In this document: piece after piece, positions 6,443 to 6,776 of the stretch
Layout of the letters: every line of letters begins with the position of its first letter
How positions within the stretch are numbered: position 1 is the stretch's first letter
IMG/VR virus record: IMGVR_UViG_3300014311_000017
Span: 1-34,916 of that record
Reading direction: 5' to 3' (one strand)
Origin: a virus
Taxonomy: Duplodnaviria; Caudoviricetes
DNA: 34,916 nt
Notes under the pieces: model-generated
What the model was told of the DNA's origin: nothing
Databases searched by the model: none
The model's input: the letters and a program-made list of their open reading frames with translations, nothing else
Program-made: the position numbers and the translations under genes

Positions 6443-6650
6443 TTTGGCTCTCCTCTTTCATCATGCAAAGATTCTTCAAGAACTCGCGACGCTGTTTAGC
6501 ACTTAATATATTCAGCACATACTTAACATTGTTAACATTAGCGCGCACAATGCGAGCATGACTTTTTCTAACGACGACAAGCAGTGTTGTGTCTTCAATG
6601 TGTCGCAAAAATGTCCAATCCCCATTTATTTTACATTTACCTAATAACAT
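6435..6650 (-). CDS. Hypothetical 71-aa protein (MLLGKCKING...) immediately downstream of the hammerhead
   Basis: Start moved from 6692 to the ATG at 6650, which follows the conserved AGGAGA leader. Confidence 0.75.
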   Translation of the reverse strand: MLLGKCKINGDWTFLRHIEDTTLLVVVRKSHARIVRANVNNVKYVLNILSAKQRREFLKNLCMMKEESQND

Positions 6651-6652
6651 AA

Positions 6653-6678
6653 TATTTCTCCTATTAAAGTTTGTTAAC
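6653..6678 (-). promoter_or_regulatory. Conserved early translation leader, copy A
   Basis: GTTAACAAACTTTAATAGGAGAAATA; 26/26 identical to 33582-33607, with a 23-nt core identical to 7195-7217. Confidence 0.9.
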
Positions 6679-6733
6679 CAGACGCCCTGCAAGGTGGGCG
6701 TTTCGCCGGAGTTACACCGGCTCGTCAGTGGTT
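6676..6733 (-). ncRNA. Type I hammerhead ribozyme
   Basis: Minus strand reads AACCA-CUGACGA-GCCGG(UGUAACU)CCGGC-GAA-ACGCCC(ACCUUGCA)GGGCGU-C-UGGUU: all core nucleotides, three perfect stems and a GUC cleavage triplet. Confidence 0.93.
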
Positions 6734-6776
6734 TTGTTATTCTTTAGATTCATTTTTTAATTTTTCCCTAAGTCCT

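Follow-up and report, generated by a model that had tools for sequence, protein, structure and literature searches.

The window, that is the whole stretch of 34,916 nucleotides analysed here, is a viral record found in wetland metagenome runs, a whole 34.9-kb record with direct terminal repeats of 123 nt. From position 7371 the plus strand carries the terminase, a P22-like portal and the virion genes, whilst on the minus strand small ORFs run from 7192 down to 170 and a block encoding RecE- and RecT-like proteins starts at 33579. The nearest named portal matches came from phages of Vibrio, Shewanella, Thalassomonas and Xanthomonas, at identities of only 19–24%, and a portal search of genome contigs found nothing. 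Relatives of TerL at 58–78% are known as proteins; TerL searches at the DNA level gave distant loci only, at ≤38% in viral contigs apart from a fragment of the same phage, and at ≤40% for the best loci in a metagenome scan covering 3 of 64 parts. Inside the DUF4116 gene (32391–32753), three to four head-to-tail 66-bp repeats with 91% identity were seen at 32427–32674.

The features of the early region are collected in Table 1. The product of gp1, the first early gene, was compared with alpha-CTD clusters (Atlas feature score 0.90) and with models bearing an alpha-CTD (TM 0.74–0.79); its single-sequence AlphaFold model was poor (pLDDT 52) and a homologue search returned only gp1 itself. As a free-standing alpha-CTD-like protein it is a candidate decoy for host transcription factors. 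The block further downstream had been put at about 29 small genes in the earlier note; our count was 27–28, depending on the ORF at 364–170, and Pfam and PHROG searches placed none of these ORFs in a significant family.

Table 1. Features of the early region and of its P2 counterpart in the window (all on the minus strand).
Feature	Positions	Strand	Basis and remarks
Promoter P2, sigma-70 type, 11/12, paralogous to P1	33615..33642	-	predicted +1 at 33608
P2 leader, copy 3, predicted 29 nt	33580..33608	-	heads RecE/RecT-like gene block
Promoter P1, sigma-70 type, 10/12	7233..7260	-	16-nt spacer, TG before -10; predicted +1 at 7226
P1 leader, copy 1, predicted 34 nt	7193..7226	-	leader match and predicted +1
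gp1, 74 aa, alpha-CTD-like (weak)	6968..7192	-	Pfam PF03118 at 18.1 bits, below cut-off of 23.8
gp2, 56 aa, without family	6777..6947	-	stop codon 43 nt ahead of stem I
A-rich flank 5' of stem I	6734..6736	-	subtype conservation of A at two stem I-adjacent positions
Type I hammerhead, canonical core, stems of 5/5/6 bp, GUC triplet	6676..6733	-	core motif, pairing and descriptor
Predicted cleavage site, 3' of C17 (6681)	6680..6681	-	established hammerhead chemistry; predicted
Released leader, copy 2, 30 nt	6651..6680	-	SD AGGAG at 6662-6658, 7-nt spacer, ATG at 6650
Downstream block, 27–28 small ORFs, mostly abutting or overlapping	170..6650	-	last ORF (364-170) doubtful

The hammerhead lies in the gap between gp2 and the downstream block. 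On the minus strand, stem I is formed by 6733–6729 paired with 6680–6676, the core heptamer CUGACGA occupies 6728–6722, stem II (6721–6717 with 6709–6705) closes on a 7-nt loop, GAAA follows at 6704–6701, and stem III (6701–6696 with 6687–6682) closes on an 8-nt loop. The sequence follows the core rule throughout (C3 U4 G5 A6 N7 G8 A9, G12 A13 A14, A15.1–U16.1 and H17), with an open stem I, closed stems II and III and intact core-adjacent pairs, and its core and core-adjacent pairs agree with the acceptance rules of Perreault 2011 (PMC3088659). It was the sole descriptor match on either strand of the genome; its score of 16 was reached by 0 of 1500 dinucleotide shuffles of the window, and a score of 12 by 19 of 1500. 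Contigs from two runs of other studies spanned the ribozyme without differences (X5, 6132–6957, and X6, 6678–6840). In the predicted ensemble, calculated with no tertiary terms, pairing probabilities were 0.98–0.99 for stem II, 0.71–1.0 for stem III and 0.37–0.56 for stem I.

Rfam models were also applied, as the earlier note had proposed. The best match was RF03152 (RAGATH-1-hammerhead), at 30.2 bits over 1–77 and with an E value of 0.0074 in 901 bases or 0.29 in the whole window; this is below the gathering score of 56.3, and the pairs of the RAGATH-1 5' hairpin are broken in the window sequence, although type I topology and core are the same. RF00163 (Hammerhead_1, gathering score 34 bits), which shares that topology and core as well, gave no match at E up to 10. 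The sub-threshold result says little, because none of 20 other phage hammerhead loci reached the Rfam gathering score either. By its sequence, 6676..6733 is thus confirmed as a genuine type I hammerhead with a predicted cleavage site, in agreement with the earlier description of a complete ribozyme.

Predicted cleavage would release a 30-nt leader, and the claim that this leader matches those behind two promoters was borne out. A 28-nt string made up of leader and ATG occurs at 6648–6675, at 7190–7217 without mismatch and at 33577–33604 with two mismatches (26/28), so that the last 28 nt behind the cut are identical to the P1 copy. The string had three occurrences in the genome and none in 100 shuffles, and the next best ATG on the minus strand differed from the leader at 7 of 24 positions. 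Sigma-70 consensus sites, P1 and P2, lie directly ahead of the other two copies. Their start points were predicted from spacing: behind each -10 box comes a CAT, and the A next to it was taken as +1. The two promoters with their leaders form paralogous blocks, and the ribozyme-side copy is a mosaic, with a 5' end like that of P2 and a 3' end like that of P1. A promoter-like match within the leader itself (6677–6649, and also at 33606) was rejected, as its start would fall inside an ORF; we take it as a by-product of the AT-rich leader. Cleavage of the P1 or P2 leader in trans by the ribozyme was likewise discarded, as the stem III strand and triplet are missing ahead of both.

We found neither a promoter-like site nor a terminator on the minus strand from P1 to the ribozyme. 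Read-through from P1 into the ribozyme is therefore expected, and RNA downstream would depend on P1. The earlier note had placed the hammerhead inside the P1 transcript, where it would separate the alpha-CTD-like gene from the rest; the ribozyme does lie in the P1 unit, and two ORFs rather than one precede it. Gating by ribosomes that translate gp2 is unlikely given the distance from its stop codon to stem I. The predicted P1 transcript opens with a start codon and an immediate stop codon (7226–7221, minus strand) before the shared leader. Other strong sigma-70 sites were noted elsewhere in the genome. A third (11/12, with TG; 34759–34310, minus strand) stands about 415 nt ahead of an ATG at 34310, with no long ORF between them. 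The SD-to-ATG stretch there resembles the end of the P2 leader; the 415-nt region folds no better than shuffles (z +0.26) and is possibly a replication origin region. Further 11/12 sites stand at 28017–28045 (plus strand) and 29845–29817 (minus strand), without the shared leader.

The ribozyme anatomy, the three leader copies behind P1, P2 and the cut site, and the spacing and near-promoter placement seen across phages (below) form the observed basis of the reading we favour. On this reading, which we hold to be rather probable, the hammerhead is a constitutive self-processing site, a natural insulator of the RiboJ kind, that gives the long block its own 5' end. RNA polymerase starting at P1 would read through the ribozyme, which would cut the early unit constitutively at 6681/6680, yielding a short message with two genes and a long one headed by an A-rich 30-nt SD leader close to those of P1 and P2. 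The 5' piece, about 546 nt from the predicted P1 start and carrying gp1 and gp2, would end in the stem II and III hairpins and a cyclic phosphate. With an SD 18 nt inside it, the 5'-OH end so made would serve the long block as a ribosome-loading, decay-independent 5' end of its own; in an E. coli-type host it would resist the RNase E decay that a 5'-monophosphate triggers, and in a host with RNase J the initiating ribosome would shield it. The ribozyme would then replace the 5' end that a promoter makes, not a promoter's output, and would not be a switch. The earlier proposal of a promoter substitute thus keeps its standard 5' leader, which the predicted cut would make, and a placement that recurs in phages, and loses any role in initiation.

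We regard self-processing as the most likely interpretation of the sequence, with cleavage, read-through and an effect on expression as its predicted steps. Among the points against it, stem I is only about 50% formed in the predicted ensemble, the predicted gain in opening of the start region is small, and leader sharing is a minority feature.

Long early polycistrons of T7 and of SPO1/SP82 are processed by RNase III, which cuts the early mRNA just before strong ribosome-binding sites. The hammerhead may act like such a processing site without the need for a host enzyme: it is predicted to cleave itself, and it would leave a 5'-OH and a cyclic phosphate in place of the 5'-phosphate and 3'-OH of RNase III products.

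Processing of phage polycistrons by hammerheads is itself not a new idea. Perreault 2011 proposed that hammerheads cut phage polycistrons into mRNAs of gene or operon length, and reported cleavage in vitro and in E. coli, with 14 of 18 consensus hammerheads cleaved (PMC3088659). For haloviruses the same source describes a hammerhead 13 nt before an early start codon and an HF2 early transcript whose 5' end falls within 3 nt of the cut (PMC3088659). The window's ribozyme resembles these prophage hammerheads and HHphage of haloviruses HF1 and HF2, as portrayed there, in being a consensus hammerhead in an intergenic gap of an early polycistron, on the same strand as the flanking genes and just upstream of a start codon. 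It differs in being a single type I ribozyme rather than a cluster and, from HHphage, in its canonical core. It also has a 30-nt bacterial SD leader near-identical to two promoter-made leaders, a link that does not figure in the parts of Perreault 2011 drawn on here. A literature search that took in few of the subscription papers found no description of leader identity between a phage promoter and a ribozyme, or of the 30-nt spacing. The unusually exact three-way leader match is what stands out here.

In E. coli, RiboJ raised mRNA 2-fold and protein 2–10-fold, and it standardises 5' ends (PMC6206723). Like RiboJ, the window's hammerhead stands before a ribosome-binding site, and its predicted cut would yield the same 5' end whatever lies upstream. 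Unlike RiboJ as described there, it is natural, follows two genes instead of sitting right behind the promoter, and has an A-rich leader without RiboJ's added 5' hairpin. If the insulator role holds, it would be RiboJ's equivalent in nature and could supply insulators, for hosts with RNase J as well. The purpose of self-cleaving ribozymes in phages is still open (2019 review, PMC6765202; PMC10085705). The phage offers one leader made by two promoters and, by prediction, by a ribozyme, on which triphosphate and hydroxyl ends, and different upstream contexts, can be compared on the same sequence.

We then assessed hammerhead layout across phages with a pattern that demanded no SD. One of 64 parts of the viral contigs gave at least 123 loci, with an estimated 10,000 matching stretches in the viral contigs, and 61 of the 123 loci hold 73 distinct type I hammerheads. 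For 58 of these 73 an ORF with an ATG began ≤70 nt from the cut, at a median of 29.5 nt and within 18–45 nt in 45 cases, compared with 8/73 on the opposite strand. The window's 30-nt leader is therefore a typical product. The leaders of these hammerheads contained 49% A and 8% G. For 34/73, an ORF with SD and start codon was found no more than 55 nt from the cut (median 31.5 nt); the controls gave 6.3% at random same-strand places, 0.5% on the opposite strand and 47/266 at stop codons. Many hammerheads (in L274, L309, L257, L295 and others) have an A-rich leader and ATG without SD behind them, with the spacing of SD leaders, as is to be expected where the host makes no use of SD pairing.

Placement behind promoters was scored among 96 hammerheads that were first in their cluster and had an SD and 1 kb of flank. 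A sigma-70 promoter and a gene with SD lay ≤1 kb upstream in 21 of them, the window included and at least two pairs among the 21 being relatives; the controls gave 2 downstream and 2 on the opposite strand. Three loci (L531, L514 and L476) repeat the order of promoter, one small gene, ribozyme and a similar leader. A hammerhead just ahead of a phage gene is a common layout rather than a rare one, and phage type I hammerheads look as if they follow a rule, with the cut about 30 nt from the start codon and the ribozyme placed behind the first genes. Hammerheads with this spacing and placement are of a kind that the Rfam thresholds miss. It is possible, and we put it forward tentatively, that phage hammerheads in general are natural insulators, interchangeable with promoters before one standard leader and set behind the first one or two early genes, so that the rest of the operon becomes a separately controlled message. 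If so, a phage with this leader behind P1, P2 and a ribozyme would be nature's own controlled test of a design that thousands of viral contigs share; the window is in any case a clean, testable instance of a widespread layout.

To examine conservation, we gathered 26 ribozymes whose stem II is 5 bp long and closes on a loop beginning with UG, and retained 21; the five dropped have a different, G-rich 8-nt loop. Stem I pair 5 was kept in 20 of the 21 and stem III pairs 4–6 in 20, 21 and 21, none of which the search required, with 3–5 pair types per position. It did require stem I pairs 1–4, stem II and stem III pairs 1–3, where only the variety of pair types is informative. Covariation of the stems in related phages, which the earlier note had wanted to see, is present as pair-type variety in same-subtype ribozymes, partly by construction. 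An A stood at -6 in 24/26 and at -7 in 19/26 ribozymes. This A-rich 5' flank and the loop II of UG..A.U type are conserved together, and the flank is the likely partner of loop II. The recurrent subtype (stem I of 5 bp flanked by an A-rich 5' side, stem II of 5 bp, loop II of 6–8 nt beginning with UG; for example L459, L514, L531, L073 and L142) had no Rfam call in the loci tested and is frequent in Clostridia genomes, including the cultured Lacrimispora xylanisolvens, whose region L459 shares the window's layout.

Leader sharing was compared in the same collections. In an SD-selected set, a gene start without a ribozyme carried the ribozyme's leader, with ≤4 of 24 positions mismatched, in 7 of 44 locus groups; a cross-comparison control gave 5 of 1892. 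The subtype sets, at ≤5 mismatches, showed such sharing in just 2/44 genome leaders and 5/60 viral leaders. L448, L531 and L132 have a scored sigma-70 promoter ahead of the shared-leader copy; elsewhere the copy stands behind a hairpin or a plain stop codon and not behind a promoter. None of the loci compared paired a scored promoter with leader agreement as close as that in the window. A nearly identical string serves as gene end plus ribosome-binding site in phAPEC8 and in Vibrio phage F88, in neither of which a hammerhead or promoter is annotated ahead of it, so that part of the leader match reflects a general optimum for strong ribosome-binding sites. Searches of viral contigs with the ribozyme-plus-leader pattern and with the 22-nt leader each matched only a fragment of the same phage. 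Sharing a leader with a promoter-made start is real but a minority trait, and the leader linkage that the earlier note had proposed to check in related phages was seen in those locus groups. A match in a Curvibacter phage lies between two virion genes (37 bases, E 4).

These comparisons bear on the possibility that the ribozyme is a passenger on a duplicated cassette, the leader being a strong initiation block copied or homogenised by recombination, in which case the ribozyme would ride along and cleavage would matter little. The paralogy of P1 and P2, the mosaic leader beside the ribozyme, the copies in other phages that follow hairpins or plain stops, and the RecE- and RecT-like proteins of the phage all fit such a history. 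PeSL cassettes of T4-type phages are a precedent, being repeated promoter-to-start-codon blocks before small early ORFans (PMC2839356). Against the promoter, stem-loop terminator and SD in many copies that define PeSLs in that account, the window has a promoter and SD in two copies, no terminator-like site found at P1 or P2, and only three leader copies, one of them with a ribozyme instead of a promoter. The catalytic core, moreover, is intact here and across the subtype while the stems covary, and the tight cut-to-start distance across unrelated phages argues for selection on the cleavage product. We therefore regard a mere passenger as unlikely.

A self-processing site must also be considered in light of what the host does with a 5'-OH end. 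The 5'-dependent decay by RNase E requires a monophosphate. RNA products with a 5'-OH are stable in E. coli-type hosts (PMC7967978), whereas RNase J1 degrades the 5'-OH products of glmS and of hammerheads in Bacillus-type hosts (PMC3997798, PMC7967978); in Bacilli a strong SD near the 5' end stabilises mRNA (PMC3997798). When genome contigs were searched for the subtype with SD, 51 of 75 loci passed the descriptor, about 40 of them in Bacillota and 8 in other phyla by record title, figures that are biased by the AGGAG term of the pattern and by binning errors. RNase J was above cut-off in all five tested genomes that carry the subtype. Since the subtype is mostly in Bacillota, with RNase J in 5/5, protection by the 5'-OH is not a general purpose: the earlier suggestion that the 5'-OH stabilises the message stands for E. 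coli-type hosts, but in Bacillus-type hosts such an end is an entry site for RNase J1. Ribosome loading at the new end by a short leader suits both host types better than 5'-OH protection.

By the same facts the cut might serve to tune the long block down, the 5'-OH acting as an entry for 5'-to-3' decay, as for glmS, so that the level of that block would fall relative to gp1 and gp2 wherever the host has RNase J. The degradation of such ends by RNase J1 and the bias of the subtype towards Bacillota would suit this, though the AGGAG term itself inflates the bias. However, mRNAs are protected from RNase J by just the kind of consensus SD that lies 18 nt behind the new end; the strongest leader is the one reused, which points to high expression; and the nearest named portal matches, at whatever low identity, belong to Vibrio, Shewanella, Thalassomonas and Xanthomonas phages. 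We consider down-tuning quite unlikely.

Alternatively the 5' piece could be the useful product, the ribozyme substituting for a terminator and giving the 546-nt gp1–gp2 message its own lifetime while the polymerase is not stopped. Stems II and III would stay on this product, with stem III ending one base from its 3' end, and ribozymes lie preferentially just behind the first genes of a unit. Yet this would leave the identity of the leaders and the tight start-codon spacing unexplained, and visual comparison suggests no relationship among the first genes of L531, L514, L476, L459 and the window. As the main purpose it is very improbable; it is not mutually exclusive with the self-processing that we favour.

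Finally, the earlier note had suggested that stem I may extend past an internal loop towards the SD, and we examined this in the window and in the subtype. The complement UAAAG/CUUUA is present (6746–6742 with 6669–6665), 2 nt from the SD, but its pairing probability was 0.001–0.004 in three precursor contexts, and a 5-bp match of this kind arose in 33% of shuffled flanks, which is chance level. Distal duplexes of the 21 same-subtype ribozymes were not stronger in native than in cross-paired combination (duplex energy -4.0 vs. -3.7, sd 2.5), and the window's own, at -2.7, was weaker than 62% of cross pairs. Across the subtype stem I ends after 5 bp, pairs 6–8 holding in only 6, 5 and 9 of the 21, and the extension was abandoned. 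Opening the start region was predicted to cost 4.8–5.9 kcal/mol before the cut and 4.45 kcal/mol after it, compared with 2.7 for P1 and 2.1 for P2. A translational ON switch, in which an extended stem I hides the gp3 SD until the cut, could draw on that complement and on the drop of 0.3–1.5 kcal/mol, but neither energy nor covariation backed a precursor helix over the SD and the SD of the cleaved product was not predicted to be more open, so that the folding models argue that the hammerhead is not an SD-unmasking switch, and we find one most improbable.

Two other loci (L087, near 6514, and L134, near 1631, both on the minus strand) have hammerhead-like copies before shared leaders in which the base that follows the core heptamer is changed. 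The lowest pair of stem II is bulged or is not G-C in these copies, which may be variants or decayed.
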